Virus record (IMG/VR): IMGVR_UViG_3300045988_005108
Location: 30,118 to 94,117 of that record
Source of the DNA: a virus
Direction: 5' to 3' (one strand)
DNA length: 64,000 bases
The position numbers were made by a program, and so were the translations under genes. The notes below the pieces were generated by a model, which was not told the origin of the DNA, made no database searches, and saw only the letters and a program-made list of their open reading frames with translations. Shown here one piece after another: positions 3,001 to 32,335 of the stretch (the first letter of the stretch is position 1; each line of letters begins with the position of its first letter).

Positions 3001-4095
3001 ATTGCTAATGTCAATAACCTCATCCATACTACCATCAAGGATTTGCTGTGCCAAAGAACCAAAGTTCTTATCAGCCTCCTTCAAGGCTCTTTGTATAGGA
3101 CTTGCATTCAGATTCTTGAAAAAATTCTTAACTGCTTGAATTACTCTTTGCAGTAGATTCTTATAAGGAGCAGATGGAATATTCTCACCTTGAAGAAGAT
3201 GCTTTGCAAGTAGTTTACCCGCAGCTTCTTTTGCCAACTTAGCCTCATCACTATGATATAAGGTATCATAGGTGTCATAGTCCTCACCTATAATTTCTCT
3301 CGCCAATCCATTGGAAGATATGTTATTGATAAGTCTATTGATGAGTGGATTATCTCCCATAGCTTCAATGGCAAAGTGTGCAAATTCCTCAGGAAGTGCT
3401 TTTTCACCTTGAATACCATTAGCAAGCCTAATCATTTCAACAAGACCATTTGCTGCATTTCTTGCAACATCAAAGTCAGTTACACCATGAATACCCATTC
3501 TCTTTTCAAGGTCAGTCAAAGCACCTATCCCTATACCATGAGACTCAAGAATACTCCTCAACCTGTTATTAAGGTTTTCATTGTATTCCATCTTATCTGC
3601 ATTAACAGAGTTAAGCCTATTTCTTTTCTCAACCTTTACTCCAATATGGATTTTTCCTGTTTCACTGTCTTGTATCTTGATTACATTAGCCACATAATCA
3701 TCCCTATACTCTGAGTTCTGATTAAAGGCTATAGCCTTCTGTTTCAACTTCTGATAATTCTCATCATTGTTTACCCACAAGGCTGGTCTGTCCATTCCTT
3801 TCTTATAGTACCCTATTTCTCTATTAAGTCTCTCAAGTACTTTAGTCTCTGGAATAACCTTACTGAGATTAGTCTGCTTTAGCAAACTTCTCAATGTAGG
3901 TTCATTGTTTTCATCTAATGTTAATCTTGGATTCCAATCTCTTATAAAAGAGTCAGCTTTTGTAATAAGATATAGTCTTGTAGCTTCACTTCTATTGTTA
4001 GAGGTGAAGGACAGCAAGTCCTTAAATAACTTGCTGTCCACTACCTGACCATTTCTATTCTTTACCTTTGGAATAATTGCACAACTTTTTGCCAT
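40..4095 (-). CDS. Large 1351-aa protein of the virion-RNAP gene block, function unknown (possibly a virion-delivered protein)
   Basis: Uninterrupted 1351-codon ORF 17 nt downstream of the RNAP C-terminal ORF on the same strand; one hydrophobic helix near the C-terminus (VGHFLIIAAFLGLM); no catalytic motif recognised. Confidence 0.35.
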   Translation of the reverse strand: MAKSCAIIPKVKNRNGQVVDSKLFKDLLSFTSNNRSEATRLYLITKADSFIRDWNPRLTLDENNEPTLRSLLKQTNLSKVIPETKVLERLNREIGYYKKGMDRPALWVNNDENYQKLKQKAIAFNQNSEYRDDYVANVIKIQDSETGKIHIGVKVEKRNRLNSVNADKMEYNENLNNRLRSILESHGIGIGALTDLEKRMGIHGVTDFDVARNAANGLVEMIRLANGIQGEKALPEEFAHFAIEAMGDNPLINRLINNISSNGLAREIIGEDYDTYDTLYHSDEAKLAKEAAGKLLAKHLLQGENIPSAPYKNLLQRVIQAVKNFFKNLNASPIQRALKEADKNFGSLAQQILDGSMDEVIDISNITSSGVFYNTSERVARDKKLLQGIIENELKRLKIYEKRNPNSQFSANQRLLIDRLDIELADNNEIEGIYTFVENALEELTKVSDRLTMLQNIPATNVNERAGVLRDVRNYLYSYKHITDDIRKALIDEERYADNRYGQRVRVVLDNTTTLLGDLFVRYNNVAMPLFVDFIKPFVGESITVPFGKFKGKTMTAEDLVKVADKDISFFDRWLDSMADSSDYMLKVMDQAVKKSKENARLETINVMKELQAATIKLEQAGIKNTDWMFERDSKGNLTGNYISEINQGLFKEKVREMFKSLNEKYGNNPVGDNAEKYRKERQAWFDANMEVVNGKKQPKVSIYGNKAYQNLNPAQKEYYNRIMEIKAKLDSYLPDKYTTLTNAVKIRKDLLERVKASDGVRSGSTQVWEAVKDQFIRRTDDTEFGDRATVKDFEGKEVQVLPIYYTKMKEGESPNDLSTDIVSTLTAYAAMANDFNEMNKIIDVLELGRDMLKEREIIQTRGGKPLVEKFKSVGRKVESTLTKSGDETRFMQRLNDFFEMQVYGRYMADEGTFGNTKIDKGKVANFVNRVTSLNMLGLNLLSGISNVTTGKIMMRIESFAGEFYNESNTLIADRNYGKALPEYLAEIGNRVKTSKLALWDELFNVMQEYETDVREVNFDRKTWFSRMFGTSALFLMNNAGEHWMQNRTSLALADAYKMKAPDGKIVSLWDAMEVVPIDKNNKKLGAKLQLKQGYTKEDGSAFTRDDIIAFSRKSAAINQRMHGIYNKADRSAVQRLAIGRMGVMFRKWIKPSLNRRFKSATYNYDLQAWTEGYYNTTGRFMWQLAKELKEGQFAIAANWKNLTKTEKANIKRAATEVGHFLIIAAFLGLMDWDDNKDRPWLQKMIEYQARRLYTEIGTQVPGPQMVGEALKILKSPAAGINTVESVLGMVGLLNPMNYETFAGEDAIIQSGRFKGDSRATKLWFESPLIPMNKTIYRGLHPEESIPFFKQ

Positions 4096-4112
4096 GTTTA
4101 TTCTATAAACCG

Positions 4113-7100
4113 TTATAAACTATATAATGTTGGAGCACCACAAATACTATCACCATTCTCATCCTTATACTCTGTATTAGGCTGAATAGTTGTCACATCA
4201 TCAGCCTTAGGAGCATAAGTATCAAGAGGAGTACCATATACCTGTTGGAAGGCATCAGTATCTACTTGTGGAATAGAATCCCAATACTCTTGAGGCATAT
4301 CTTGATAATCAGGCATAGAATCATAATCAACCTCAGCATCTCCAAGGTCAAATCTTGACAATGTATCTGCATAAGGGTCATAATCTTTCCTGTTCTTATC
4401 AATTACAGTTTCCATCTCCTCTACATCCTTGCCATATTCATATTCAATGAAGCTGTTTCTGAAGCCTAATGGTTCAATCCTTTCATAGATTGCAACATTA
4501 GTTTGTTCAGTACCTACAGATGATAACTTGTAATAGACATAGTTTCCTCTGATTCTTCTACCTATATACTTAAAGAAGTCATAAGCAGGACCATCAGGAG
4601 TATCTATCCTTTTCTTGATAACTTTCTTATCTCCAAAGGTAGCATTATCATCAATTACAAATGTAACTTCATCCTTAACTTCATTATCCTCTCCTATGAA
4701 CTGGACAGAGGCTGTATCAGGGATTTCAGGAACCAACTTTCTATTATCCAAGTGATTATAGACATATTGGTCTACAAATTGACTATAATCATCACTTGAT
4801 GACAAGAGAGTTCTCAATGTACTTATGTACTCTGGGATAGCATTTCTCACTGCCACAGGTGCCAAATGGATAAAGGTTGAAGGTCCAAATGCAAAGCCAT
4901 TCCTATAATAGCTGTATCTGAATAAGTTAAGAGCAAGTTTCTGAGCTTCTGGGTTACTCATATACAACAGAGATGCCCAATCTCTCATATATCTTTCTCT
5001 CAAAGTAGGACTTAACTGACCTACATTCTTAAACACTACTGTGTCTACAGGATTACTGTCATTTGCCCTAATTACCTTGAGTCTCTTAATAAATTCAAGG
5101 TCAGCTATATCCTCATTATCTGTAACCACTCTCTTGAAGTACTCAGGGAAATTATTAATGAAGTCCTTTCTCTTATCAGAGGAAGTTACAATAATATCAC
5201 CTACTTCTGAGTCTGGGTTTACAATCAATTCAGAACCAAAGAATCCATTCTTTGACATGATGTAGGCAAGCAAGTCATTATAAATACTATTCATAGTCTT
5301 TACATTCAACTTACCAGTCTTTGTCATGTCTCTAAGGTCATCAATTACAGTTCTGAATGATTCAGTATATTGAGGGAAGTAAGACCCTAACATTTCCTCT
5401 GTTTTCTGTAAGCCAAGAGTGTAGAAAGCCTGTAAGAAGGGAAGAGGAGCAGACAATAGTCTTTCTCTTAGAGTGTCAGTGTCAGGATTGTCTGATAACA
5501 GACCATCAAGTATTACATTGGCATTCTTCAATGGAAACTTGTCATTATTCTCTATCTGGTCTAACAGGTCTTTTACTTTCTGCATCTTTAACTCTGTATC
5601 TGCAATAGTAGGACCAGCAGCACCTCCTTGGGTATCAGACCTTGTAGCTTGTACTAATTGTCCTAAAGCATCAGCAGAGTTCATAATTCTCTTGAACAAA
5701 TATCCAACTGCAACTTGTTTCTGGTAGAACTCAATTTTTCTGAAATCAGAAGTCTGAGACCTGTCAGTAACAGCCTCCTTAGCAAGCATTATATTGTCTG
5801 CAAGCTCTTCAATATAGAAGCTATTATTCTTGTAGTTATCATAAGTCAAGTCACTATTAAGAGCAGCCTTCTCCTTATACTTATCCAGTACTTCATCAAT
5901 GATAGTATCTTTGCCTTTACCTTCTCTACTCTCTCTAAAATAGGTCTGAGTAATCTCTTGAACTATAGGCTGCATCATTAACAAACCTATCTCAATAGGG
6001 TTATAACCTAATCTTGAGAGAAGCATAGAAGCATCAGCAGTGAAAGTATTCTGATTAAGTGCTGCAAGCACAGGGTCTTTAACATTATCCACAGAAGCAG
6101 CCAAGAATCCAGCATTATTCTTTGAGATAAATTCCTTGTCACCATTCATAATATCATGTAAAGATGTAAGTCTCTTTCCATTCAATACAAATGAGCCATT
6201 TTCTTCATCCAAAGCTAACTGAGTATGTTGCATCAAAGCATGATTTGCATTATGGTTGGCATAAATACCAATCAACTTAGCACCAGTCATGTTCTGCTGA
6301 TGTAACATTACCTGAGTTCTTGGTGATAATGGGTCCATCTTGACCTTTGTCTTTTCTGCCAACTTATCAAGAGTATCAAGGTCTAAGTCAAATAGATATG
6401 AAGCAATAGACTTGGGATAAGACTTTCCACCTTTCTGTACAGTCTTATTAAGTTCTACACCTACATCCTTTAATGCTTGAGCCAAGTCACTCTCATAAGA
6501 ATCATTGAGAATGGTCATTATTCTTGCAGACTTCTTCTGATAATCAAAGCCACCTGGGTTAAGAATTTTTGAAGCTGTATCTGCATTAGTCAGAACTCCA
6601 TACATCATATCTATCAGCAAGTTATTTCTTGCTTTAAGACTGTTCTCCTGTGGAGATTTATTGAAGTCATACTTTACCTTGCTTATAATAGGCTTGGCAA
6701 GTCTGTACTTCTCTTTATTCTCCTTGAACCATTCCTTAAAGTCATCAGTATCTGCATTGAGAATATCCTCTGCTAATTGGCTATGAGTGAATTGTGACAA
6801 TACTTGATTGAATAAGCTATTCATTCTTGCATAGTCTTCTCTTGCCTGTCTCATATCATACTTCTTAACTCTGAACTCAGGTAACATGATATACATCTTA
6901 TCCACATCAAAGTCAGAACCTGATAGAGTAGTAATCTCAGCAGGAAGCATAATTGCAGAACCATTCTGTTGAGGAAGGAATCCCTTAATATACAGAGGAG
7001 CCATTGAATATTTATCCTCCGTTGGGACTCTATATCCAATCAACTTTCTCAAATCCTCAGGAAGTTTAGTTACATCAAGCTGGTGAGTATTTGGGTCCAT

Positions 7101-7766
7101 GAGAGGCTCATAGAACTCTCTACTATATGCAGGCATATAACATTCAAGATACTTAATCCTCTTGTTAGCACCTTCACCTTCAAATACTACATGAAGTTCA
7201 TCAGTCAAGCCATAATCAGATACCTGAATTAAAGCTCCACCTCTAATCTTCTGTTTAGTAATTCTACTCTTGATTACACTATTAAGGAGTGTCTGTACTC
7301 TTTGAGATTGCACAGGGTCAAAGAGAGGGATATTGAAGTTGTTGTTCTCATCAAGAGTACAAGCCCTCATCATATCCACACCATATCTTTGATTACCCCT
7401 TATCTCTTCAAGTAAGATTTCCTCTACTTTCTCTGGTTTTTTGAATATCTCATCTACATCAGCAAATGCTTGAAGAATATTCTCAGTATTGATGGCATTA
7501 TACAGGTCAAGCCATTCTTTCTTAGTCATCTTCTTACCATCAACCTCAATGATTGTGTCATCAGAGATGTCAGCAGTAATTAGTTTTCTAATCTGAGTAC
7601 CTACCAACTGAACTGCATCAATAGCATGTTCAGGAGTTGCAGTCTGAATACCATAATCTTCATAAGATACCTTATGTACTACATTAGGATTCTCATTACC
7701 AAATCCAATGCCTGTAGCATCTTTAAGCCTCTGAATTACATCAGCCTCTGTATTTACATCATTCAA
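4113..7766 (-). CDS. Virion-type giant RNA polymerase (crAss-like), C-terminal portion carrying the DxDxD catalytic loop
   Basis: 1217-aa ORF; LSGSDFDVDKMY resembles the DFDID metal-binding loop recalled for crAss-like virion RNAP; no ATG (track start is TTG) and the frame stays open upstream to 7808, as expected for the 3' part of a split gene. Confidence 0.6.
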   Translation of the reverse strand: MNDVNTEADVIQRLKDATGIGFGNENPNVVHKVSYEDYGIQTATPEHAIDAVQLVGTQIRKLITADISDDTIIEVDGKKMTKKEWLDLYNAINTENILQAFADVDEIFKKPEKVEEILLEEIRGNQRYGVDMMRACTLDENNNFNIPLFDPVQSQRVQTLLNSVIKSRITKQKIRGGALIQVSDYGLTDELHVVFEGEGANKRIKYLECYMPAYSREFYEPLMDPNTHQLDVTKLPEDLRKLIGYRVPTEDKYSMAPLYIKGFLPQQNGSAIMLPAEITTLSGSDFDVDKMYIMLPEFRVKKYDMRQAREDYARMNSLFNQVLSQFTHSQLAEDILNADTDDFKEWFKENKEKYRLAKPIISKVKYDFNKSPQENSLKARNNLLIDMMYGVLTNADTASKILNPGGFDYQKKSARIMTILNDSYESDLAQALKDVGVELNKTVQKGGKSYPKSIASYLFDLDLDTLDKLAEKTKVKMDPLSPRTQVMLHQQNMTGAKLIGIYANHNANHALMQHTQLALDEENGSFVLNGKRLTSLHDIMNGDKEFISKNNAGFLAASVDNVKDPVLAALNQNTFTADASMLLSRLGYNPIEIGLLMMQPIVQEITQTYFRESREGKGKDTIIDEVLDKYKEKAALNSDLTYDNYKNNSFYIEELADNIMLAKEAVTDRSQTSDFRKIEFYQKQVAVGYLFKRIMNSADALGQLVQATRSDTQGGAAGPTIADTELKMQKVKDLLDQIENNDKFPLKNANVILDGLLSDNPDTDTLRERLLSAPLPFLQAFYTLGLQKTEEMLGSYFPQYTESFRTVIDDLRDMTKTGKLNVKTMNSIYNDLLAYIMSKNGFFGSELIVNPDSEVGDIIVTSSDKRKDFINNFPEYFKRVVTDNEDIADLEFIKRLKVIRANDSNPVDTVVFKNVGQLSPTLRERYMRDWASLLYMSNPEAQKLALNLFRYSYYRNGFAFGPSTFIHLAPVAVRNAIPEYISTLRTLLSSSDDYSQFVDQYVYNHLDNRKLVPEIPDTASVQFIGEDNEVKDEVTFVIDDNATFGDKKVIKKRIDTPDGPAYDFFKYIGRRIRGNYVYYKLSSVGTEQTNVAIYERIEPLGFRNSFIEYEYGKDVEEMETVIDKNRKDYDPYADTLSRFDLGDAEVDYDSMPDYQDMPQEYWDSIPQVDTDAFQQVYGTPLDTYAPKADDVTTIQPNTEYKDENGDSICGAPTLYSL

Positions 7767-8016
7767 ATCTATTACACCTTGTTTCAGTTTTGTTATCCTA
7801 TAAGCTTTTTATCTCATAGTTCTTACATTTCATTTAATGTAAGCTCGGCGTACATTTTCATCTTTAGCTTTACCTATTAAGATGCAGGACACTCTTGGGT
7901 CTATTATATTTATTCAAGACCTACGCTCTACACTACTAATTAACCTTTCGTAATTTAATTAGTTAGCTCGGTATTAGCATCTCAGCTTTCACCGATTTTG
8001 CCCTGTAATTATATCA
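7767..8016 (-). other. Non-coding stem-rich segment between the endonuclease ORF and the RNAP 3' ORF (possible intron core or leader)
   Basis: 250 nt without ORF, locally GC-richer; minus-strand stems such as CTAACTAATTAA-N11(CGAAAG)-TTAATTAGTAG, GGTCT-N14-AGACC, CTTACATT-N6-AATGTAAG. Confidence 0.3.
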
Positions 8017-8784
8017 TTAATTACTTAATGATACGGCAAACAAATATTTATTATATTTTCTATCTAAGTAAACATGGGCATTATTATAAATAGTATTTAA
8101 GAATTGTATTGCTTTACTGTGAGTAAATTTAGTTTCATAATAGTTGTTGTTACCATATTTAGTTACTAAGTTTTCAATACCAGTATACTTCAAACAATTT
8201 GTAACTATATTTAGAGTTCCTACTATATTAACTCTTGGATATGGTTTAGTACAATTCTTATGTTCATCTATTCCAACACTTCCATCACCATCAAATACTC
8301 CTCTTACAAAAGGAATAACCAATGAAGAATCTTGGAATATACTCATACTTGGGAATTTCAAAATTAAAGATTTTCTTGGAGTGCATCCATAAGATATTAA
8401 CATATCTTTTAAGTGCTTACTTTTATTCATTATACTATATGATGTATATTCTTTGTAATGTTTAATTCTTATTGGATTCTTTGAACTAATAAACTCTTTG
8501 AATTTCTCTAAGTGCTCTCTGTCTATCAATCCAATCTCTAAACTACCATTATCAGAAATACAACCATCAGCATAAATGAAACCTAGCCAATATGCTTTCT
8601 CCTCAGTATCAATATTATCAAATATATGCTCATTGAATTGAGCTTTTGATAGTTTGATATTAAAAGATTTAAGTATATAAGATACTGTAGTATAGTATAT
8701 ACCTAATTCTTCTGCAATTTCCTTAACTCTTTTTCCTTGTAAAGCAAGTTCTTTTACTTTTTCATAATTTACTCTTTTCTTCAT
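8017..8784 (-). CDS. LAGLIDADG homing endonuclease (double-motif) with N-terminal HTH-like region
   Basis: 255 aa; two LAGLIDADG motifs (YWLGFIYADGCI and FVRGVFDGDGSV); sits between the two RNAP ORFs; has its own promoter-like motif. Confidence 0.85.
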   Translation of the reverse strand: MKKRVNYEKVKELALQGKRVKEIAEELGIYYTTVSYILKSFNIKLSKAQFNEHIFDNIDTEEKAYWLGFIYADGCISDNGSLEIGLIDREHLEKFKEFISSKNPIRIKHYKEYTSYSIMNKSKHLKDMLISYGCTPRKSLILKFPSMSIFQDSSLVIPFVRGVFDGDGSVGIDEHKNCTKPYPRVNIVGTLNIVTNCLKYTGIENLVTKYGNNNYYETKFTHSKAIQFLNTIYNNAHVYLDRKYNKYLFAVSLSN

Positions 8785-8806
8785 ATCATTACCTTTATAT
8801 TTGCTA

Positions 8807-8838
8807 CAAAGGTAGTAATAATTTATCTACTTAGCAAG
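8807..8838 (-). promoter_or_regulatory. Bacteroidetes-type promoter (cTTG-N20-TAccTTTG) for the LAGLIDADG ORF
   Basis: Minus strand reads CTTG...TTACTACCTTTGTAGCAAAT, the -7 box ending 22 nt before the ATG at 8784; same motif family as the five other promoters listed. Confidence 0.5.
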
Positions 8839-8854
8839 GATATAAATAAAATAT

Positions 8855-11800
8855 TTATACTTTACCAACCTTAGTAGTAGACTCAAACTGAACTACATCA
8901 ATCTGATTATCCTCCATAAACTTATTTATGGCTTTCAGCTTGCCTGACCTTCCTAAAGGACCAGCAATTAGTTCGTGCATAGCAAGTAATAGGAACTCTG
9001 AGTTCTTATGCTGTACAGGAGTCTTAATTCCAGTATGACCTTCAATGCCACTGTTATTATTGACTTGTGTATAAACATAAGGCTTCTTAGTCTGCCAAAT
9101 GATATTGAAGTCTTTGATATTCCAATCTCCATTCTTGAAGTTGTTATATGCCTGCTCCATATCATCTGTCCACTGACCTGACATACCAAGTATTGCCCTA
9201 TAGGAACTCAAACTTCTATATGCCTGAGCATCTGCTACATTCACATTCTTAAACTTGTAAATGATATTGTCTCTGTCTATCTTGGTCATTTCATTTCTTC
9301 TAACCCTTTCATCAAGTACAGTCTTGATGTCTTCAAGTACAGAAGATATTATCTCATCATCCTTCAAGTAGATAGTTCTTTCCCAATCCCTACCAATTCT
9401 CTCACCTTTATAAGTAGCCTTAGTATTCAATCTAAGAGCAGGAGCATGAACCTCCTTATATCTCTTCTGAAAGTCCTCAAGGTTCTTATAGAAAGCAAGG
9501 TCAGTAGTAGTAAGCTGGATAATTTGTGAAGTAGCTAACTTACTGTTCCAATAGTACTCTCTAAGAGCATCTTTAGCATTGTTCTTAACAAACAGGCTTC
9601 TTGAGATTGACTGAGCATCTTTCAATTCCATCTCACCTCTTGTTGCCCTATCTGTCATCAGATTCTTAATCTGCTCCATCAGGTTATTGGCTTCCCTACT
9701 ATCAAAAGCACTATTATTGTTATAGGCTCTAAGCATTAGTTCCATATTGGTATTCCACAATGAACCTAAAGCCTCTTTAGCCTTAATAAGTGCCTTTGCA
9801 GTTATTGCATTCTGCTTAGACTGACCTTCAAAAGGAAGATACTTGTACTTGCCATTAGGAAGTTCATCAAGCAGTCCTGCCCTTGACCAATCTCTGTAGG
9901 TTTGTTCAAAACCATCTTCCATCATGTCATTAAGAGTAGTTCTTAGAAAGTTTCTGAGTTCAGCACCAGTACCTGTGGATTTAAGTCTGCTTAACCTATC
10001 AATGAATGTTTCTCCATTGTCGTATCTGAGGTTGTTAAGTGCAGGAAGGAACTTAAATTCTGCACCTCCTATACTCTTTATACTACCATCTTTCTTTCTG
10101 ACAATATCATAGTTGGCAATAGGTTCTACATTCTTATCTCCACTCTGATAAGCATCATCCCTTTCTCTAACCAGCATGATTCTGTCATACTCTTGATTAA
10201 CCAAGTCTACTAACTTGTCAAGGATAACATCATCATAGGCTCTTTTCTTACCATTTTCATCAAGTACATCACCTGTTGTGTACTTTCTGAATCTGATAAA
10301 CTCAGCAGAAGGACTATCTGAAAGAATAGGAACATGATACCAAGCATACTTTATACTTGACTTTGCAGAATCAGGGTCTCCCCAATACTCTGTAAGAAGA
10401 GCTAAAGTATAGTCCAAATCATCCCAATTGGTATAGTCTACTTTGTCAGAGTTCAGCACTACTTTATGGTTAAGACCTCTTCTCAATTCATCAGACTCTG
10501 CAAGCTGTCTTAGCCAGTCATTTCTCCAATGACCATCCTTAAAGAACCACTCATAATCCTTGAACTCAGTTTGCATAAACTGTTCAAATCTCTCCTTGTC
10601 ATTCATAACATTCTTGAGATTCTTGATAAGTTTACCTAAATAGTTAGGAGTAACATGAGAATAGTAAGACTTATCATTCTCTCTGACACTACTTTCAATA
10701 GCATCCTCAGTTACCTCTGCCATCATACTTGCAATCATATTGTAAGCAGAGCCAAAAGTATTGATAAGGTCTCCTCTCTTCTCAGTACCATCCTCCCTTG
10801 TCTCAGACTTGACTTCACCTTTCTTAATACCACTGAATATGACATTCAATTGTGGTAAAAGAAGCATAATTGGGTCAGTAAATGTGATACCTGGAGCTGT
10901 CTTTATATCAGTTAATGCAGTCTTTAATACAGAAGGATTAGCATCAATACCTAACATATGAAGTAACTTCATTATGGTATTCCATACATCTTCTCTTTCC
11001 AAGAGTTGAAGTCTGGATTCTGTATCAAGGTTCTGGAACATATTGTTCAATGTCTCAGTCCATTGCAAACCCTTAGCTGCATTATCCTTGTTTATTTCCC
11101 TATTCTTCTCATATACACTATCATCATCAAGCTGTACTCCATTCTCATAGTTATCTCTCCAAGCATCAAGGAGATAATACACACCTTCAGGCTTATTAAT
11201 GGCAATAGTTTCCATTTTGAAAGAACCATCAGGCATCATTCTTTTCTTTTGAATCCAGTAAGGCATAAAGTCCTTTCTGAAGTCTTGATAGAATTGAGAG
11301 AATAAAGTTTCATCACCTTGAAGTAATTCTATTATTTGATTAACCCAAGGTTTAATCTTAGCCACATTTTCCAATAAAGGAATCATGTCATCAGAGTTAA
11401 TCATATTCCTTAACTTGTCAATGAAAGTAGCATGAACATAGTCAGCATCAAGGTATCTTGTGAAACCTAAATCATCTTCTTCATACATACCCTCATAATC
11501 AAGTTTAGGTACTTGTCTGATTACTTTTCTTACAGCTTGTGACAGAGACTCCTGTGAACTTACCTGTCTGAAATTGGTCATCCACCCATCTTTATAAGCC
11601 TCTTCTTGTCTCCAATCCTCTGCTTCATTATCTACCTCACTGTTACCATCAGGGTCATCATCATTGAGGTTTGCATCAGCAGGTGCAATGTAGTTGGGGT
11701 CTATCCTAATACCCTCAGTCATTACAAGCAAAGTACTTGCTTCCTCAGCAAGAGCTTTATAAACACTAGGGTCATCAACTATCTTCTTATATTCCTGATT

Positions 11801-12988
11801 CTTATAAGCAGCTTTCTTCTTGGCAGCTTCCAACTTTTCTTCATCAGAAAATCTTTCAGATTCATCTATTTCTCCAGCTTCAATAAGAGCATTTTCCTCA
11901 GCATTAATCTTATTAAGTTCTTGCTGTATTCTACCTTCTTCTGTATCCTGTACATAAGAATTGAAGATGTTAGCTACTCTCTTGAATATACCAGCAGGAG
12001 TGTACTTCTTTATAGCAGAGAACCTATCCAAGCTATTAAGCTCAGCCTGTAATTCTTCTTTCTCTACACCACTGGCATCATCAATTCTTCTCTTCAAAGA
12101 ATCAGTCATTTCCTGCAAGGCATTATCAACTTCATTACTGAAGAACCTTGCAATAAGGGTTACTCTATCTCTTCTCGTTTTTGGGTCAAAGAGTAAGTCC
12201 ACCTTTTGCTGTTCCTCAACAGAAGTAATCCTTGGAGTATCAAAAGAACTGCTAAGTGTATCTGTAATTTTCTCTTCTGGTCTTGAAAGAAGGCTAATAG
12301 CCTTTTTTATCTGTATGGTATTATACTCCGTACTTCTTCCTTGTTTTAGAACATTATACTCTTTCTCAAAATAATCTTCTAAGGCAGTTCTTTTAACCAT
12401 TAAGGTTTCAGGGTCAGTTTCAACAGCAGTACTATCCATCTTACTATACTTACCAGATTCTACTAAATCTCTAATAGATTCAGGAACAATCTTATTTATA
12501 TTATTCCAATACCTATCATCATTAACATTAGTAACATTACTTCCACTACTATTGAATAAATCCCAAATCTTTCTTGTAGGACTTCCATAATAAATGGCAA
12601 AAGCACTGTTACCTGTAGTAGGACTGGTAAAGTCGATTCTGATTTCTGTTCCATTAGCTCCAGGATACATACTTACTTTAGTAGTTCCCTCACTAAATTT
12701 TTCTTTATCAAAGGAAGTACTAAGTAATTCTTCTCCTTTTTCTGTAAGAAAGCCCTTATCATTACCATTAACATTCACATATTTGCTAATAGACAAAGCA
12801 GTAATTGGGTCTTCCTTTCTTATTTCCTTAATAAAATCATTGAGTTCACTACCTAATGGAATATCCTCACTAGACTTATTATTCTTTTCCTGCCACAGTC
12901 CAACCAAGTTAAGTACTGATTGCTCTGTTTCATTAGGAAACTTCTTAGCTAATTCTCTAATTTCTGGTGTTATAATTAAACAACTCAT
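8855..12988 (-). CDS. Virion-type giant RNA polymerase (crAss-like), N-terminal portion
   Basis: 1377-aa ORF upstream of and co-oriented with the DFDVD-bearing ORF, separated only by the endonuclease cassette; combined about 2594 aa puts the catalytic loop at about 64 percent of the length, similar to what I recall for single-chain crAss-like vRNAPs. Confidence 0.5.
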   Translation of the reverse strand: MSCLIITPEIRELAKKFPNETEQSVLNLVGLWQEKNNKSSEDIPLGSELNDFIKEIRKEDPITALSISKYVNVNGNDKGFLTEKGEELLSTSFDKEKFSEGTTKVSMYPGANGTEIRIDFTSPTTGNSAFAIYYGSPTRKIWDLFNSSGSNVTNVNDDRYWNNINKIVPESIRDLVESGKYSKMDSTAVETDPETLMVKRTALEDYFEKEYNVLKQGRSTEYNTIQIKKAISLLSRPEEKITDTLSSSFDTPRITSVEEQQKVDLLFDPKTRRDRVTLIARFFSNEVDNALQEMTDSLKRRIDDASGVEKEELQAELNSLDRFSAIKKYTPAGIFKRVANIFNSYVQDTEEGRIQQELNKINAEENALIEAGEIDESERFSDEEKLEAAKKKAAYKNQEYKKIVDDPSVYKALAEEASTLLVMTEGIRIDPNYIAPADANLNDDDPDGNSEVDNEAEDWRQEEAYKDGWMTNFRQVSSQESLSQAVRKVIRQVPKLDYEGMYEEDDLGFTRYLDADYVHATFIDKLRNMINSDDMIPLLENVAKIKPWVNQIIELLQGDETLFSQFYQDFRKDFMPYWIQKKRMMPDGSFKMETIAINKPEGVYYLLDAWRDNYENGVQLDDDSVYEKNREINKDNAAKGLQWTETLNNMFQNLDTESRLQLLEREDVWNTIMKLLHMLGIDANPSVLKTALTDIKTAPGITFTDPIMLLLPQLNVIFSGIKKGEVKSETREDGTEKRGDLINTFGSAYNMIASMMAEVTEDAIESSVRENDKSYYSHVTPNYLGKLIKNLKNVMNDKERFEQFMQTEFKDYEWFFKDGHWRNDWLRQLAESDELRRGLNHKVVLNSDKVDYTNWDDLDYTLALLTEYWGDPDSAKSSIKYAWYHVPILSDSPSAEFIRFRKYTTGDVLDENGKKRAYDDVILDKLVDLVNQEYDRIMLVRERDDAYQSGDKNVEPIANYDIVRKKDGSIKSIGGAEFKFLPALNNLRYDNGETFIDRLSRLKSTGTGAELRNFLRTTLNDMMEDGFEQTYRDWSRAGLLDELPNGKYKYLPFEGQSKQNAITAKALIKAKEALGSLWNTNMELMLRAYNNNSAFDSREANNLMEQIKNLMTDRATRGEMELKDAQSISRSLFVKNNAKDALREYYWNSKLATSQIIQLTTTDLAFYKNLEDFQKRYKEVHAPALRLNTKATYKGERIGRDWERTIYLKDDEIISSVLEDIKTVLDERVRRNEMTKIDRDNIIYKFKNVNVADAQAYRSLSSYRAILGMSGQWTDDMEQAYNNFKNGDWNIKDFNIIWQTKKPYVYTQVNNNSGIEGHTGIKTPVQHKNSEFLLLAMHELIAGPLGRSGKLKAINKFMEDNQIDVVQFESTTKVGKV

Positions 12989-25973: not shown

Positions 25974-26651
25974 TTAATACTCTTCGTACCATTTTATTGG
26001 TACACCATAAATTCCTTTTACTCTATTACTTATATCAATAAATAGTTGGTGTGGCATCTTAGTGCCACTCCTTGCAAAGTATGCAGGATGTTCAATCTCT
26101 ATAATGTGATTGAATCTACTATTGATATAAGGTTTGAAAGTTTGAGCCTGTCTGCCAAATAGCACATATATTATAGCTGTGTCATACTCAGACAAGTTCT
26201 TTAATAGTTTAGCTATGAAAGGTCTCCATATCATCACATGGGAGCCTATCCTGTTCATCTCTACAGTAAGAGCAGAGTTTATCATTAGTATCCCTTGTTT
26301 AGCCCAACTCTCTAAAGTCTGGTCAAAGGTAATACAATAATGTGGAATCTCAAAATTAATGGCTGCTTCTTTAACAACATTTAATGAAGGAGACAAGTTA
26401 TCCTCATTAACCTCCTTCCTGTTACCAAAAAGTATGCCAGTTGCAACTCCCTTTTGTGGATAGGGGTCTTGACCTAACATAACTACTTTTAAGTCCTTGA
26501 GGGGACAAAGCTCAAATGCCCTGAACACATCAGACTGGGCAGGACACAGAGGCTTTCTCCTGTATTCTTGTCCAACCTTAGCCATTACATTATTAAGCTC
26601 TGCCCTGTCAATTACCTTCATCCAATCTCCAAAGTATTCATCCAATGTCAT
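25974..26651 (-). CDS. ung: Uracil-DNA glycosylase (family 1)
   Basis: VVMLGQDPYPQKG (GQDPY water-activating loop), IEHPAYF (HPS-like motif); 225 aa. Confidence 0.85.
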   Translation of the reverse strand: MTLDEYFGDWMKVIDRAELNNVMAKVGQEYRRKPLCPAQSDVFRAFELCPLKDLKVVMLGQDPYPQKGVATGILFGNRKEVNEDNLSPSLNVVKEAAINFEIPHYCITFDQTLESWAKQGILMINSALTVEMNRIGSHVMIWRPFIAKLLKNLSEYDTAIIYVLFGRQAQTFKPYINSRFNHIIEIEHPAYFARSGTKMPHQLFIDISNRVKGIYGVPIKWYEEY

Positions 26652-27418
26652 AGCAACATCATTATGTCCTCAATATTGTCAATAAGGCATTCATTCAGTG
26701 CATCATTAGAGCAGGCAGATGGAGTAGGCTTGATAGGCTCTATAAAGAACTTATCAAAATTATCTACTATGACCTTTACTTTTCTATCCTCTGGATTACT
26801 ACTGAAACTATAATTGTTTCTTGGGAAATTTACATCCCTACTTGTATAATAAGGAATTAATTTCCTGGTGATGCCTTTATTAATCAATTTATCAGGCTCT
26901 AAGAATACTTTAGGGCTGATGTGGCACACAGGTCTGTAATAGACCATAGTATTATCATTATCCTCAGTATGTACACTTCTTGCAGTTAATGTACATAATA
27001 GTAATGGAGTATAACTCTCATCAAAAATGATACCTTTGCCACCATAATACACTTCACCTTTATTGGTGATTATCTTCTGTAATTTTTTATCATATCCAAC
27101 ATTAGTAAACAATTGCTTTATGATACTATCAAAAGTTCTTCTCTCTTGGCTTGGTGTATTATTATATAATGGCAATATTATCTTCTTGATTCCCATAATT
27201 GTAGGAGAAGCCAAATTATCCGAGACCAACTTTTCAAAGTGTTCTCTTGCAATCACAGGTATCTCTACCTCATTACCATTTACTTCAACGATAAGGCTTC
27301 TTCTAAATACATTGTTACTATCAAGAGACAGATTCATTTCAAGCTGACCTGGTGATTCAGACTCACTGCTATTGAAAACACTACTTACACTATATATAAA
27401 TCCTGTGCTAAATTCCAT
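26648..27418 (-). CDS. Hypothetical protein (256 aa), last gene of the E1/JAB cassette; possible beta-grasp N-terminal half ending in GG
   Basis: Start overlaps the E1-like stop by 1 nt, stop overlaps the UDG start (ATGA); SLIVEVNGNEVEIPV...KIITNKGEVYYGG (GG at aa 126-127) is ThiS/MoaD-like by eye only. Confidence 0.3.
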   Translation of the reverse strand: MEFSTGFIYSVSSVFNSSESESPGQLEMNLSLDSNNVFRRSLIVEVNGNEVEIPVIAREHFEKLVSDNLASPTIMGIKKIILPLYNNTPSQERRTFDSIIKQLFTNVGYDKKLQKIITNKGEVYYGGKGIIFDESYTPLLLCTLTARSVHTEDNDNTMVYYRPVCHISPKVFLEPDKLINKGITRKLIPYYTSRDVNFPRNNYSFSSNPEDRKVKVIVDNFDKFFIEPIKPTPSACSNDALNECLIDNIEDIMMLL

Positions 27419-28554
27419 TATACTTCAGTTTTAAGATACATTGTTTCTGCATTATATGTGGTAAGAAATGGCAGGTCTCTGTCAATGAGAGGCTCACATT
27501 GATTAGCACAGAAGTTTACAAACAAATTAACCATATAGGATGCAATCATATTTGCACAGAAGGTAGTTTGTTTATAGGAGCAGACAGTTGCATCAGCTTC
27601 TGTATCAGAGAATAGAAACTCATTATTGTACCTATTGATATTGTACTCATCATCTCCCTTGATACATAATACTTGAAACTCTTCTGCTGCTAATCTACCA
27701 TCAATAAACAAGCAATTCTTTCTCTCCTTTTCTGGCTTGGATTGAACATGATTTACCCATTTATTAAAGAAAAGTCTTCTTGCTGCCATATTATCAAAGC
27801 CACAAATCATAATATCTGATGCCTCAGATTCAGTGGTAAATCTCTCACTTATTGCAAAGACACTGCTATAGCCAGCATAGTTTCTAATCATCTCAGTCAG
27901 TGCAGATACCTTAGGTCTACCTAAATCAGATTGACCATATAACTGACCTGACATATTGACAGCTTCTACTATGTCATTATCATAGATAAACATAGAAGCT
28001 GGCTTCATCCTTGCCAATAAAAAGCCTACATAACTACCAATACCACCCACACCTGCCAAAATAATAGTTTTCTTCTGAATGTTCTCATACCAAATGGCAG
28101 AACTAAACCTACTTGTAGCTTCATCTACAAGCAAAGTTGCAGAGTTTGTAGGTATCTCTTGATGTGCATCTTCTACAGCTTGACCAAGGATAGCCTGTTC
28201 CTCTTCTGAAAGTTCAAAGCTAATGCTGTCACCATCATCTTCTACAGAGTTACCTGTCCTTATAGCCCAAGCCTCTTCAATTAAACTTTTGAAGTGTTCA
28301 TTGACAAAGATTCTACCTGTTACACCTTCAGTGCTACTATATACAATTTTATAGGTATTAGGTACACCATCCAAACCAATAATATTAAGAGAGGCAATGA
28401 GACCCATTCTAATATTATTAAGGACACTATTGAAAGTGTTAAGGTCAGCATATCCCACCTCATTATATTCATGAACATTATTCTCATTGAGACTTTCCAT
28501 AAGGGAATTATAAGCCTCAGTTGCTTCTTGTGGAATTGTTACTTCTTCATTCAT
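27418..28554 (-). CDS. ThiF/MoeB/E1-like adenylyltransferase-fold protein with a novel 155-aa N-terminal extension
   Basis: KKTIILAGVGGIGSYVG (GxGGxG Rossmann loop), IYDNDIVEAVNMSGQLYGQSDLGRPKV, CGFDNMAARR: order and spacing as in ThiF/MoeB/E1 adenylation domains; N-terminal 155 aa lack Cys. Confidence 0.7.
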   Translation of the reverse strand: MNEEVTIPQEATEAYNSLMESLNENNVHEYNEVGYADLNTFNSVLNNIRMGLIASLNIIGLDGVPNTYKIVYSSTEGVTGRIFVNEHFKSLIEEAWAIRTGNSVEDDGDSISFELSEEEQAILGQAVEDAHQEIPTNSATLLVDEATSRFSSAIWYENIQKKTIILAGVGGIGSYVGFLLARMKPASMFIYDNDIVEAVNMSGQLYGQSDLGRPKVSALTEMIRNYAGYSSVFAISERFTTESEASDIMICGFDNMAARRLFFNKWVNHVQSKPEKERKNCLFIDGRLAAEEFQVLCIKGDDEYNINRYNNEFLFSDTEADATVCSYKQTTFCANMIASYMVNLFVNFCANQCEPLIDRDLPFLTTYNAETMYLKTEV

Positions 28555-29759
28555 AATATTAAGTATTTCTGAAGTGCATCAATATACCCTTTGATATAAT
28601 CATTTTCAGGGAGTTTTGTAAGCTCCTCTATCATATCATGGGCACAAATAGCACAAATTTCTGTTTCATCAAAGCCAAGCTCTTCTAATTTCTCATCTGT
28701 TGTATACCATGTCAGATATTCTGTGTAGGTATCTGCCCACATTTTGAAATTTTTCATGCCTTCTTCACCCTTACCAAATCTCTTTTCATACAATGCAGAC
28801 ATTGACTTAGCCCATTTGGTAATGTCAATCTTACTATCATTAGAGATAATAATGCTACCTGTAATCAATTGAAGTACAAGAGACTTCAAAGTGACTTTAT
28901 CAAATGTCACCTGACCATAAGGTAGATTATAGTCATCATCAAATGGCAAGTCATCTACATTATCAAAGAGAGTTGACTGAACCACCTTAGATTTATTATC
29001 TTCCTTCTTGACAAGATTTGCTGGACCTGCCTTTGTACCATAAGAGTTAGCAATAACAGGCTTATAGCCACCTTGATATACAGGTGTCTGAGCTTTCTTG
29101 GCTTTCTCTGCTTTAACTTGCTTGATTTCCTCAAGTCTTGCTGCCATATCTGGGAATGAAAATGTTTCATCTTCATTCTCTATTTTAAGATAGAACCATT
29201 CAATCTCATCTGCATCACTTATATACTCCTTAGTATCTTGCTTTTCACCATCACCAAAGAACTCATAAGATACAGATTCCATGGTCTGCTTTGACTTGAT
29301 TCTCCTTGTGATTGCAGCAGTATAGGAACCTGCATTATTCACAATAAGAGACACAAAATTATTCCTATCCCTACCTTCTTCCTTTAGAGTAGCAGTGTCT
29401 GTTCCACTAAAGAAAGTGCTCATATTATTATGTGAATGGATTAATCCCATTTGACAATCAAGCAGTTCAGGATTTTCACACATATAGGATATTACATCAG
29501 GATTCATATCAAACTCTGTATAGGCTTGAGTTCCAATATCCATGATGTAAATATCTACACACCTTATTACAAGGTCATCATTTTCAAATGAACCTTCATG
29601 TGTAAAGAACAATGTACCTGACCATTCAGTATTCCATACCTTCTGACAGGCAAACCTTATCTTTCTTTCCACTTCTGCTGGAATAATCAGCTTATAATTA
29701 TAGGTACCTGACTTCTGTACCAGGCTGATTACTTTCATGGGTTGCTTTGTTTCTTCCAT
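28551..29759 (-). CDS. JAB/MPN+ (JAMM) metallopeptidase-domain protein with a 240-aa C-terminal extension
   Basis: NTEWSG (Glu) plus LIHSHNNMSTFFSGTD = exact HxHx7Sx2D JAMM signature (H108,H110,S118,D121); 4-nt ATGA overlap with the E1-like ORF. Confidence 0.8.
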   Translation of the reverse strand: MEETKQPMKVISLVQKSGTYNYKLIIPAEVERKIRFACQKVWNTEWSGTLFFTHEGSFENDDLVIRCVDIYIMDIGTQAYTEFDMNPDVISYMCENPELLDCQMGLIHSHNNMSTFFSGTDTATLKEEGRDRNNFVSLIVNNAGSYTAAITRRIKSKQTMESVSYEFFGDGEKQDTKEYISDADEIEWFYLKIENEDETFSFPDMAARLEEIKQVKAEKAKKAQTPVYQGGYKPVIANSYGTKAGPANLVKKEDNKSKVVQSTLFDNVDDLPFDDDYNLPYGQVTFDKVTLKSLVLQLITGSIIISNDSKIDITKWAKSMSALYEKRFGKGEEGMKNFKMWADTYTEYLTWYTTDEKLEELGFDETEICAICAHDMIEELTKLPENDYIKGYIDALQKYLIL

Positions 29760-31032
29760 ATCTGTAATTTAATACTTTGAGTATTGTTGTTAATATGTAT
29801 AGTGCAATTTGAGTATTAAGAATTATGCTCTTGTTCTCATTTCTCACTTCTACAATATCTGTAATATCTACAGTTATTTCTCTTCCCTTGAATACACAAA
29901 CTTTCTTGCCTATATGCTGAGCATAGTTATTTACATTATTCCTGCTCCTATCATAGTAAATCCTTCCATTGTCTATGATACACTCTCTCAAGATACCATG
30001 TTCCTTCAAGTCTGCAAATTCAGTAGTCAATTCCCTTTTATTGAATTGGTCATTATACCACTTGATAAACTCATTACTGATAAGCACAATAAATTCAATA
30101 AGTGACATTCCAATAGAATAGGAGCCATTGACATAATTAAATTTGAGTCTCTTAGAGTTAATGAAATACCTCACAAACTCCTTGAATTTGTCAGAAGTGA
30201 TGTTAACTTCATAGTAACCAGGAAACAGATATGTAATGAATCTATTTATACCTGTTTCCATATCACTGGTGCCTAAATTCTCCAAGTAATGATAAGGTCT
30301 CCCAGCAACAGATTCTACAGTTACATACTTACTTAATTCAAGGCAAAACATATTCCACATATCCTCATCATAATCCCTATTGAGGGCACTAATAGTACCA
30401 TTAATAGGACCACTACCTGTACAAGGATTTTGGAATTTGGTGAAATCACTTTTAGGGATACTACTGACATGACTATGCAAATAATTACTCTTGAAGTGAA
30501 GCAGGGTATATTCTGACCTGTTAAGTGTGAATCCACCTCTCAATGTACCATCACACATTACTTTCACCTTAGCCCACAGGTGGTTAATATCCACAAATCT
30601 GTCATGCTCATTAGTTACTCTTACATGAGGAAAATGTACAAGAATGAATATGTCATTGAACTTAGCATTACCAATTCTTTCCTCTACTGTAGTATTTGTA
30701 AGCACATTAACAACCTCCTCTACTTGGTCTTTAGGTAAATCAGTAATGGATATTGCTCCATACATGCTCCAGTCATTCCTATTCATGCCTACAATACTAC
30801 CATTAGGAATATAAGTAGATAGAGGTTCTATATTCATCCAAGATTTGAACTTATCCAAACTCCAATATCCTTGCATATCAACTTTATCCTCCCCAAAGAA
30901 GTCATTGAATATGCCTAATACTCGGAGTGGTCTATCCATCAAGGAGTTATATAGTTCCTCTATCTTCTCCTCAATTAATTTAATTGTTTCTCCACTCATA
31001 TTACTGTAAAAAAAAAGTAGGTAAGGGGGCAT
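29698..31032 (-). CDS. Hypothetical protein (433-444 aa), first gene of the E1/JAB cassette
   Basis: Overlaps the JAB ORF by 41-62 nt; only a weak GS-x12-DxD string (CTGSGPINGTISALNRDYDED); likely start is MSGETIK at 30999. Confidence 0.5.
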   Translation of the reverse strand: MPPYLLFFYSNMSGETIKLIEEKIEELYNSLMDRPLRVLGIFNDFFGEDKVDMQGYWSLDKFKSWMNIEPLSTYIPNGSIVGMNRNDWSMYGAISITDLPKDQVEEVVNVLTNTTVEERIGNAKFNDIFILVHFPHVRVTNEHDRFVDINHLWAKVKVMCDGTLRGGFTLNRSEYTLLHFKSNYLHSHVSSIPKSDFTKFQNPCTGSGPINGTISALNRDYDEDMWNMFCLELSKYVTVESVAGRPYHYLENLGTSDMETGINRFITYLFPGYYEVNITSDKFKEFVRYFINSKRLKFNYVNGSYSIGMSLIEFIVLISNEFIKWYNDQFNKRELTTEFADLKEHGILRECIIDNGRIYYDRSRNNVNNYAQHIGKKVCVFKGREITVDITDIVEVRNENKSIILNTQIALYILTTILKVLNYRYGRNKATHESNQPGTEVRYL

Positions 31033-31055: not shown

Positions 31056-31595
31056 TTATTTTGCAAATTTCCAAACAAAGCCATAAGATTGAGATACTGA
31101 GACCCACTTACCTCCTCTATAATATCCTCCTCTACAACAATTAAGTATTGGAGCAGTATTATATCCTAACTCTCTTTGTATTTGAGAAGCTGAGTCATAA
31201 GTCTTTACAAGAATATTTGCCCTATATTGCGCTATTTTTAGTCCTCTCTTTTTACTAATTTTCTTCAAAGAGAGCCTTTCTTGAGCACTTCCATAATTTA
31301 CATTGTAACTTTGACTACACCACTCAAGATTGCTCACAACATTATTAATAGGGTTCTCATCTTTATGATTTACATAAGGTAAGTTTGAAGGATTATCAAT
31401 AAAAGCCTGTGCTACAAGTCTGTGTACAAGATAATGTTTCCCTACATTTTCCTTATATAGGCTTACAGATGAATATCCTCTGTTATTCTTGTGCTTGCTT
31501 AGCAAAGCATTCCTACTTAGAGATTTTACATTCCCTAAGTTGGAAACTTCATATAACCCTTCATATCCTTGTATAGGTCTCCATATTTCAACCAT
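31056..31595 (-). CDS. HNH homing endonuclease with NUMOD4-like N-terminus, free-standing
   Basis: WRPIQGYEGLYEVSNLGNVKS (NUMOD4-like) and VNHKDENPINNVVSNLEW (HNH_3-type H-N-N). Confidence 0.75.
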   Translation of the reverse strand: MVEIWRPIQGYEGLYEVSNLGNVKSLSRNALLSKHKNNRGYSSVSLYKENVGKHYLVHRLVAQAFIDNPSNLPYVNHKDENPINNVVSNLEWCSQSYNVNYGSAQERLSLKKISKKRGLKIAQYRANILVKTYDSASQIQRELGYNTAPILNCCRGGYYRGGKWVSVSQSYGFVWKFAK

Positions 31596-31600
31596 ATAAT

Positions 31601-32335
31601 TTAGCCTACAAAATTAAACATATCATCAATCTCATCATCAGAGTAAGGAGAAGCTGACTTAGGCTTGTACTCCTCAGAAGGTTCAGCACTTACTGCAACC
31701 TTACCCCCAAGAATGCCAAGCACTTCCTCTTTCTCATCCTCTTCAATTGTGCCATTGTCCTCAAGAACTTCCACCAACTTACTGATAGCAGCTCTTGCTA
31801 CAGTATCAACACATTCACCACCATTACTTGCAGGTGCTACAGGAGCACTTGCTTCAGGAGTATTTACAGGTGTTTCCTCCTTCTTAGCCTCAGCTTTAGC
31901 CTCAGCTTTAGGAGCAACAGGTGCAGGCTTTAAAGCACCACTGTCCTGTACTAATGCAATAAGGTCAGCAGTTTTACACATAGTGAAGTTCTTACCAAAC
32001 TTCTTTACACAAGCACTCTGCAAACTCATAGACTTGATAGCATTATATGCCTCAGTTCTGCTCATTGCTCCTGACCTAATCTTCTTATTAGTGTTAGTAA
32101 GCATGAAAACCAACTCATTGGTGACAATTCCCTTGTAAGGAACATCATGTGGCAGAACTGAAGCATCATTCTTCAATTCAACCTTTGATGTGCCTTCAAA
32201 GAAGGTCATATCATCATAGTCAATATTATTGGCTCTCAAGTCACTCTTCAACTCAGCAAGGGTCGTGGCTGCTGACATAATAACACTCTTCTTCTGATTC
32301 TTAGTCTGTACGACTGTAATTTTTCTTGCTTCCAT
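31601..32335 (-). CDS. Hypothetical replication-module protein with Ala/Pro/Lys linker and acidic aromatic C-terminal tail
   Basis: 244 aa; PAPVAPKAEAKAEAKKEE linker; C-terminus SDDEIDDMFNFVG resembles SSB-type acidic tips. Confidence 0.5.
   Translation of the reverse strand: MEARKITVVQTKNQKKSVIMSAATTLAELKSDLRANNIDYDDMTFFEGTSKVELKNDASVLPHDVPYKGIVTNELVFMLTNTNKKIRSGAMSRTEAYNAIKSMSLQSACVKKFGKNFTMCKTADLIALVQDSGALKPAPVAPKAEAKAEAKKEETPVNTPEASAPVAPASNGGECVDTVARAAISKLVEVLEDNGTIEEDEKEEVLGILGGKVAVSAEPSEEYKPKSASPYSDDEIDDMFNFVG

Follow-up and report, generated by a model that had tools for sequence, protein, structure and literature searches.

The ubiquitin-like protein (Ubl) conjugation systems described in bacteria to date serve the host in its defence against phages, namely type II cyclic-oligonucleotide-based antiphage signalling systems (CBASS) and the Bil and Bub systems. 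Bil operons have the constant gene order bilA-bilB-bilC-bilD, which encodes a Ubl, an E2, a JAB peptidase and an E1, respectively, and the JAB peptidase BilC pre-processes the Ubl, thereby exposing its Gly (PMC10557695). In Bub operons, a Ubl fusion protein, BubAB, is cleaved by a peptidase, BubCD (PMC11601596), and the CysO/Mec+ and QbsE/QbsD pathways combine a small carrier with an E1 and a JAB protein (Iyer et al. 2006, PMC1779556). Here, we analyzed a stretch of 64,000 nucleotides from the IMG/VR virus record IMGVR_UViG_3300045988_005108 (positions 30,118 to 94,117 of that record; hereafter the window), which derives from a crAss-like phage and carries, as a core part of its replication block, five minus-strand genes that we call W, X, JAB, E1 and Y. 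The order W-X-JAB-E1 equals the Ubl/second enzyme/JAB/E1 order of BilABCD, with X corresponding to the E2 by position only. We favour a Ubl conjugation-like module because a Gly-ended Ubl-like domain, a Cys-bearing X, a JAB protein and a Cys-bearing E1 occur together in this very order. That the five genes work as a Bil-type Ubl conjugation system with a non-canonical "E2" has, in our judgement, about an even chance of being correct.

The last four of these genes had been described in a first-pass annotation of the window as translationally coupled open reading frames (ORFs) of 444 (X), 402 (JAB), 378 (E1) and 256 (Y) amino acids, and both their coordinates and their junction sequences agree with our analysis: ATGA at JAB/E1 and again between Y and the following uracil-DNA glycosylase (UDG) gene, TAATG at E1/Y, and an overlap of 62 nucleotides between X and JAB. 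The same annotation took the pairing of JAB and E1 for the sign of a prokaryotic Ubl-type module, which would be unusual in a phage. This idea is supported by our data and has gained in strength, since a Gly-terminated Ubl-like domain is encoded directly upstream and the resulting gene order matches that of Bil operons. By contrast, the statement that no small Ubl ORF is present did not hold, as the Ubl-like domain resides in the next upstream gene (31601-32335), just outside the interval that had been considered.

This gene, W, encodes a protein of 244 amino acids (ΦcrAss001 gp79, FpV4 gp53, phrog_15560) and was flagged by a scan of the window for Gly-terminal ORFs; the search of the window for other small ORFs ending in GG yielded no convincing candidate. 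Its first 89 residues (32069..32335) form the putative Ubl-like domain, which terminates in KKIRS-G89, with the Gly codon at 32069-32071. Of 147 unique homologues, 144 have the terminal Gly and three are gapped at that column; the Gly is preceded by Ser (126 of 147), Ala (12) or Gly (3) and, at position -2, by Lys or Arg. In an alignment of 59 diverse W domains, this Gly is the sole invariant residue. Besides, 19 W homologues are stand-alone ORFs of 75-106 amino acids with just one to five residues past the Gly, which is the classic layout of a Ubl that needs trimming. In three Steigviridae-like IMG/VR contigs (L028, L062, L063), an endonuclease gene located two codons past the Gly divides the gene into a 91-residue Ubl ORF ("...KKIKSG|KF") and a separate ORF that starts at the equivalent of window residue ~90. 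The stand-alone and split forms mark Gly89 as a functional domain end, and residues 1-89 have what is expected of a Ubl modifier, namely a small domain of ~75-90 residues with a conserved Gly end and residues to trim. Weak single-sequence Pfam hits of this domain were enriched for ubiquitin-clan families (ThiS, SAMP2, DUF348 [Ub-like], DIX, OTU1-UBXL), and a crude secondary-structure propensity profile reads beta-beta-alpha-beta-?-beta. From these features we infer that residues 1-89 of W may adopt a beta-grasp fold.

The C-terminal part of W (31601..32068) comprises a conserved helical region (MSRTEAYNAIK..FGKNFTMCKTADL), a low-complexity linker rich in Lys, Glu, Pro and Ala, and an acidic tail ending in DDEIDDMFNFVG. 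It usually spans 50-217 residues, is missing or very short in the 19 stand-alone homologues, and is predicted to be the leaving fragment after JAB cleavage. The extreme tail (window positions 31601-31640, minus strand; ...SDDEIDDMFNFVG) is conserved as S..EID.MF.FV, an acidic-hydrophobic pattern that may be likened to the tails by which single-stranded DNA-binding proteins (SSB) contact other proteins at their C-terminus. The region ahead of this tail (FGKNFTxCKTxDL) looks SAP/HeH-like by its sequence.

The E1-like/ThiF adenylating enzyme (27418..28554; 378 amino acids; crAss001 gp76) has its core at residues ~147-378 (~225 amino acids). The first-pass annotation had recognized ThiF/E1 motifs in it and had noticed that the usual NLxRQ arginine is replaced, and both observations were borne out. 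Residues 156-299 match Pfam ThiF (PF00899) at 62 bits, well above its curated cutoff of 28.1 (E=6e-17), and the conserved residues include G168, G170, G173, S174, D192, D194, N200, Q204, K215, D254 and R259. On alignment to UBA5, MoeB and ThiF, and in line with established knowledge, these provide the GxGxxG loop, the ribose-binding Asp, the catalytic Lys and the Mg-binding Asp; among 148 unique homologues, G168, G170, G173, S174, D192, K215 and D254 are 93-100% conserved. The NLxRQ motif reads N200-x-S-G203-Q204, its Arg being replaced by Gly in 95% of homologues, and the invariant R259 and R287 might stand in for that arginine. The enzyme had further been credited with a Cys-free N-terminal extension; while this extension is real, the core nevertheless holds a Cys, C325, that is conserved in all 148 homologues and is a candidate for the catalytic one. 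The extension itself (~145 N-terminal residues) is a variable, lineage-specific feature, which cr111, Dulem virus 41, FpV4 and the majority of environmental loci lack. Among close relatives its length varies from 0 to about 160 amino acids, and in the nearest relative, whose E1 has 284 amino acids, it is partly deleted. Profile searches against the PDB ranked UBA5 first among solved relatives, the other best ones including MccB, PaaA, MoeB, ThiF and TcdA. Since all of them match the nucleotide-binding half only, the enzyme cannot be assigned to a subfamily.

The JAB/JAMM metalloprotease (28551..29759; 402 amino acids; crAss001 gp77) consists of a JAMM domain (residues ~14-165) and, towards the C-terminus, a helical domain of about 120 residues that is likewise conserved. 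Its JAMM signature, already called complete in the first-pass annotation, comprises E45 (in NTEWSG) and H108-S-H110...S118..D121, and these residues are 97-100% conserved in 142 unique homologues. The single sequence matches Pfam Prok-JAB at E=3.2e-4 and 21 bits, below the cutoff of 25, and a profile of the family aligned its motif with those of CSN5 (E 0.016) and archaeal JAMM1 (E 0.066) in the PDB. We predict that JAB acts as a Ubl-processing and deconjugating peptidase.

X (29698..31032; 444 amino acids) occupies the E2 position and corresponds to crAss001 gp78, FpV4 gp52 and phrog_15310, a PHROG family of "unknown function". Counted over 144-148 diverse unique homologues, N141-E142, R172, Y184, H186-S187-H188 (30469-30477), C204 (30421-30423), G206, E240-S241, G244 and P246 vary little or not at all. 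The protein had no sequence hit in Pfam, NCBIfam, PADLOC or the PDB. Its AlphaFold2 model, built from a 148-sequence alignment, is confident (pLDDT 91.7, pTM 0.83), and a Foldseek search of the PDB with this model returned no fold match (best E 0.63, TM about 0.1), while matches in BFVD were uncharacterised phage homologues only. Because fold, profile and hhalign searches were negative or non-significant, we regard X as a protein of orphan fold whose invariant residues look like those of an enzyme. It may be an enzyme of a novel type that transfers a Ubl or makes use of one.

Several other identities were considered for X. A polymerase-beta-like nucleotidyltransferase, proposed in the first-pass annotation from a GS-x12-DxD string, found no support, as the string falls into a variable, gapped N-terminal region and no fold hit backed it. 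A second MPN/JAB domain is a weak lead: just "YMHSH" of X aligns with "GLIHSH" of JAB (P 0.06-0.11), and no MPN domain appeared among the 50 Foldseek matches listed. Hits to a T-fold enzyme, peptide deformylase or 3C protease were at noise level. The conserved C-terminal Tyr-Leu/Ile of X, entertained as an E1 substrate, is kept in the crAss clade only and not in environmental homologues. As to the start codon, the 444-residue ORF and its 62-nucleotide overlap with JAB exist as annotated, yet translation may begin at Met12 (30999; 433 amino acids), because nearly all database homologues have 433 residues and start at the equivalent position; an AAGGAGG 7 nucleotides upstream of the ATG at 31032 points the other way. 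The overlap between X and JAB ranges from 50 to 125 nucleotides in the crAss clade, Dulem virus 41 and FpV4 (L003, L005, L007, L008, L009), and JAB is always in the +1 frame relative to X. This constant frame could reflect inheritance, or coupled or frameshifted translation. In the Xanthomonas jumbo phage PhiXhv-15 (L004:2256-6506), a ThiF-like E1 of 227 amino acids lies beside a Cys-rich protein of 892 amino acids and topoisomerase genes. The latter protein ("IHPHM..SLCLGS") was rejected as an X homologue, as the X hidden Markov model (HMM) aligned the motif with a negative, non-significant score, and neither a JAB nor a W homologue was found at this ThiF locus.

The nearest record to the window is bajarodcaudo virus 1 (79% nucleotide identity). 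The cassette is syntenic across Steigviridae, namely in ΦcrAss001 (gp78-gp75), the PhiCrAssBcn phages, DAC15, Kolpuevirus and cr85/106/111/112/126/128; it is also present in Dulem virus 41 and, outside Crassvirales, in Flavobacterium phage FpV4. Two IMG/VR scans added 160 further loci, 80 of them from diverse environments, and X, JAB and E1 follow one another in this order in essentially all of these 80. A W homologue precedes X in 165 of 175 loci, and 158 of 174 phage loci, ΦcrAss001 (gp79-gp76) and FpV4 among them, show the full order W-X-JAB-E1. Chance falls far short of explaining why about 160 phage loci should share these genes in this arrangement. Of about 81 environmental loci, 66 have a primase gene within 6 kb. 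The X family amounts to 1524 clusters at 50% identity in a representative library and is restricted to phage contigs: among 185,579 species genomes, X was found on only five contigs of metagenome-assembled genomes (MAGs), three of which (29-111 kb) resemble mis-binned phage DNA, the other two being short fragments. Module-bearing phage contigs, some of them near-complete crAss-like genomes, are binned in MAGs that bear the labels Bacilli, Acholeplasmatales, Spirochaetia and Agathobacter (L090-L094), and one Y homologue (P0024) carries a Fusobacterium protein name; these bacterial labels are probably binning or annotation artefacts. Public records annotate the cassette genes as "thiamine biosynthesis protein", "metalloprotease" (domain) or "hypothetical protein". 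In the literature accessible without subscription, we found no paper that links crAss-like or other phages with a ThiF, JAB or Ubl module.

In the window, W and X are separated by an HNH/NUMOD4 homing endonuclease gene (31056..31595, minus strand; Pfam NUMOD4 E=1.3e-14, HNH_3 E=1.4e-4) that is missing from the corresponding site of the nearest relative (L001), crAss001, DAC15, cr128 and cr111. This gene lies outside the module and is an insertion that interrupts the five genes. The endonuclease ORFs that split W in L028, L062 and L063 are related to it.

How could these proteins act together? On the reading that we favour, JAB would cut the 244-residue precursor W after Gly89, giving rise to a Ubl of ~89 residues that ends in ...K-I-R-S-G and a C-terminal, DNA-replication-associated fragment. 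The minimal E1 would use ATP to adenylate Gly89 and then probably load the Ubl onto Cys325, from where it would move to Cys204 of X, a protein in the E2 position with an unrelated and unmatched fold. X would in turn transfer the Ubl to a target, which may be a phage or a host protein, and JAB could reverse the conjugation. The fast-evolving Y might serve as a specificity factor or be itself a target. UBA5, the top solved relative of the phage E1, is the E1 of UFM1, and the conjugating Ubls UFM1, ATG8 and ATG12 likewise have single-Gly (x-G) termini; we count both points in favour of conjugation. A wider proposal, which we put forward tentatively and consider less likely than not, is that a large, phage-only clade of replication modules, to which the model gut phage ΦcrAss001 and hundreds of environmental phages belong, possesses a complete protein-tagging system of its own, with X as a transfer enzyme whose new fold has no relation to UBC E2s, and tags phage or host replication proteins so as to control genome replication or host takeover.

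Several observations weigh against the conjugation reading. In a profile search of the PDB, and in hhalign and profile comparisons with small sets of ubiquitin and ThiS proteins, the W domain found no significant match. Moreover, its Ubl domain might act uncleaved, because a long conserved C-terminal region is retained in most phages. The E1, its core measuring only ~225 residues, lacks the CYS and UFD domains that E2-charging E1s carry as separate units. As to X, its resemblance to an E2 is limited to an HSH-x15-C string and to gene position. Foldseek, HMM searches and hhalign comparisons with UBE2D2, UBC9 and UBE2N all failed to support a UBC fold, and neither an E2/UBC nor an MPN protein was among the 50 Foldseek PDB matches listed. 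Since UBC similarity went undetected, it is the position and the invariant Cys from which we assign the "E2" role, and the H-S-H/C/E pattern of X could equally well constitute a metal site.

The main mechanistic rival is a sulfur-carrier pathway. Here, the W Ubl would be a ThiS/MoaD-type carrier that is trimmed by JAB, adenylated by E1 and converted via a persulfide to a thiocarboxylate, with X, by means of its invariant Cys, His and Glu, thiolating a metabolite, a nucleotide or nucleic acid during replication. Several findings are compatible with this pathway: the best NCBIfam matches of E1 are ThiS adenylyltransferase models (66 bits, well under their cutoff), ThiS and SAMP2 are among the weak Pfam hits of the W domain, whose C-terminal strand "..GDFTLFL.P.KVKSG" resembles "DGDxVxFFPPVxGG", and the neighbours of the module are genes for nucleotide metabolism and replication. 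However, the W terminus is [SA]-G, whereas the sulfur carriers that we are aware of (ThiS, MoaD, CysO, QbsE, TtuB, SAMPs, Urm1) all end in GG. Nor did we see a rhodanese, a cysteine desulfurase or a PP-loop enzyme in or beside the module, and X matched no known sulfurtransferase or synthase fold. A combination of JAB, E1 and small carrier is, on the other hand, the CysO/Mec+ and QbsE/QbsD layout (PMC1779556). Taken together, we consider a sulfur-carrier function rather unlikely.

We assign an equally low probability to a counter-defence function, in which the module, or JAB alone, would undo or jam the host's Ubl-based immunity (type II CBASS with Cap2/Cap3, Bil or Bub) by deconjugation or by means of a decoy Ubl or E1. 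This proposal is a rival with regard to purpose and could be compatible with conjugation chemistry. Host Ubl systems are indeed antiphage (PMC10557695; 10.1101/2023.09.04.556158), Y evolves fast, as arms-race genes often do, and E1 shows a weak similarity to the PADLOC models of Cap2, the CBASS E1-E2 (E 8e-12), yet over only about 90 residues of the Rossmann fold. Against it, JAB gave no Cap3-type hit in PADLOC, a lone deconjugase would need no Ubl, E1 or X of its own, and the module is stable and syntenic in the replication block beside the primase across very diverse phages, unlike most anti-defence genes, which are accessory and patchy.

Less probable still is that E1 acts on a non-Ubl substrate, be it the C-terminus of a peptide, as with MccB and PaaA, or a nucleic-acid carboxylate, as with TcdA, and that the Gly of W is incidental. 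While MccB, PaaA and TcdA rank among the best solved relatives of E1 (E 1e-13 to 7e-11) and the absence of known folds in X and Y leaves room for new chemistry, these matches are limited to the shared nucleotide-binding half, just as those to UBA5, MoeB and ThiF, and such an activity would leave the strict co-occurrence and order of E1 with JAB and a Gly-terminated small domain unexplained.

Y (26648..27418; 256 amino acids; crAss001 gp75) is the fifth gene of the module and is translationally coupled to E1 and to the UDG gene after it (25974-26651; Pfam UDG E=2.7e-12). It follows E1 in Steigviridae-like loci, whereas in environmental phages this slot is filled by other proteins that are at best remotely related to it (hhalign Y1 vs Y2, P=0.0024); by sequence, it is a fast-evolving gene. 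Y had no hits in Pfam, NCBIfam or PADLOC and no PHROG match beyond a family of "unknown function". Its AlphaFold2 model is moderate (pLDDT 69), and nothing significant was found by Foldseek in the PDB (best E 0.09). SSB or PriB proteins made up 9 of the 50 hits listed, albeit at E 0.09-1.5 and TM below 0.25, so that no conclusion can be drawn about an OB-fold SSB. The first-pass annotation had tentatively seen in Y a ThiS/MoaD-like beta-grasp domain (residues 40-127) that would be exposed by JAB cleavage after GG126-127, and, although the predicted order beta-beta-alpha-beta-alpha-beta-beta of residues 39-127 would suit such a domain, we deem this largely refuted and highly improbable: the GG is not conserved (GG/GA/GC/VG/KG), with only Y124, Y125 and G129 being nearly invariant there, the predicted beta-sheet runs unbroken past residue 127 (pLDDT 81-87), ubiquitin, ThiS and MoaD are absent from the 50 Foldseek matches listed, and most environmental phages keep W, X, JAB and E1 but have, in the place of Y, proteins with little or no relation to it.

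Elsewhere in the window, the sign of the GC skew and the coding strand flip near position ~50000, which marks the boundary between a leftward replication/early block and a rightward block, and three ORFs of 1217-1377 amino acids occupy positions 40-12988. A scan for promoters and terminators was uninformative.

What is new about the locus, as a prokaryotic Ubl/E1/JAB system, is that phages encode it, that a protein of orphan fold occupies the place of the E2 and that an extra, fast-evolving gene is included. Neither X, despite its confident model, nor Y has sequence or fold relatives outside phages. If the wider proposal on protein tagging is true, this would be the first ubiquitin-like conjugation system of a virus of bacteria, and X would stand for a class of Ubl-transfer enzymes not seen before. 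A Ubl/E1/JAB set on the phage side can be put to a direct test, because this phage family, which dominates the human gut virome, has a cultured model in ΦcrAss001 (gp75-gp79).

How, then, does the phage module relate to the known systems? Sequence comparisons do not support membership in Bil, type II CBASS or PRTRC; the first-pass annotation had named all three as examples of systems with a JAB+E1 pair, and the NCBIfam and PADLOC scores do not speak for the latter two. PRTRC cassettes share with the phage module a ThiF-family E1, a JAB-like protein A and residence on a mobile element. However, the scores were far under the NCBIfam cutoffs (PRTRC_ThiF, 34.3 bits vs 144.75; PRTRC_A, 13.5 vs 101.8), and the module is borne by phages rather than by a conjugative element and has neither ParB nor PRTRC proteins B-F, as judged from the lack of further NCBIfam PRTRC hits. 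Type II CBASS likewise pairs an E1-type adenylation domain with a JAB peptidase, as in Cap2 and Cap3, the former with weak HMM similarity to the phage E1. Unlike it, the phage module contains no CD-NTase and no E1-E2 fusion, and has a dedicated Ubl domain. The CysO-Mec+ and QbsE-QbsD-QbsC systems resemble it in having a Gly-terminated small carrier, an E1-like adenylase and a JAB protein that removes C-terminal residues (predicted in our case). Yet in contrast to ThiS/MoaD-type carriers, phage W ends in S-G or A-G instead of G-G, and different from sulfur-carrier systems, the module lacks a sulfurtransferase partner and contains the additional, Cys-bearing orphan X.

With Bub, the phage module shares a Ubl that is (as predicted here) released from a larger fusion protein by a peptidase, as well as divergent E1 and conjugating enzymes, BubCD being a distant match of the phage E1 (E 7e-7). 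Whereas Bub relies on Ser/oxyester chemistry and a peptidase-E1 fusion, E1 and X of the phages retain an invariant Cys and JAB is a separate protein. Finally, sequence searches for Bil membership in PADLOC and NCBIfam gave only generic E1 hits and none for W, X or JAB. Unlike BilABCD, which belongs to bacterial defence islands and is encoded beside the regulators capH/capP, the module is encoded by lytic phages inside their replication block, its X (433-444 amino acids) has no detectable UBC fold, its E1 core is minimal, its Ubl is mostly fused to a region of 50-217 residues, and Y comes as an extra fifth gene. What the phage module has in common with BilABCD, beyond the order of the genes, is a Ubl that carries residues beyond the reactive Gly, for which JAB trimming is predicted here, and an E1 of the ThiF superfamily with a conserved Cys.

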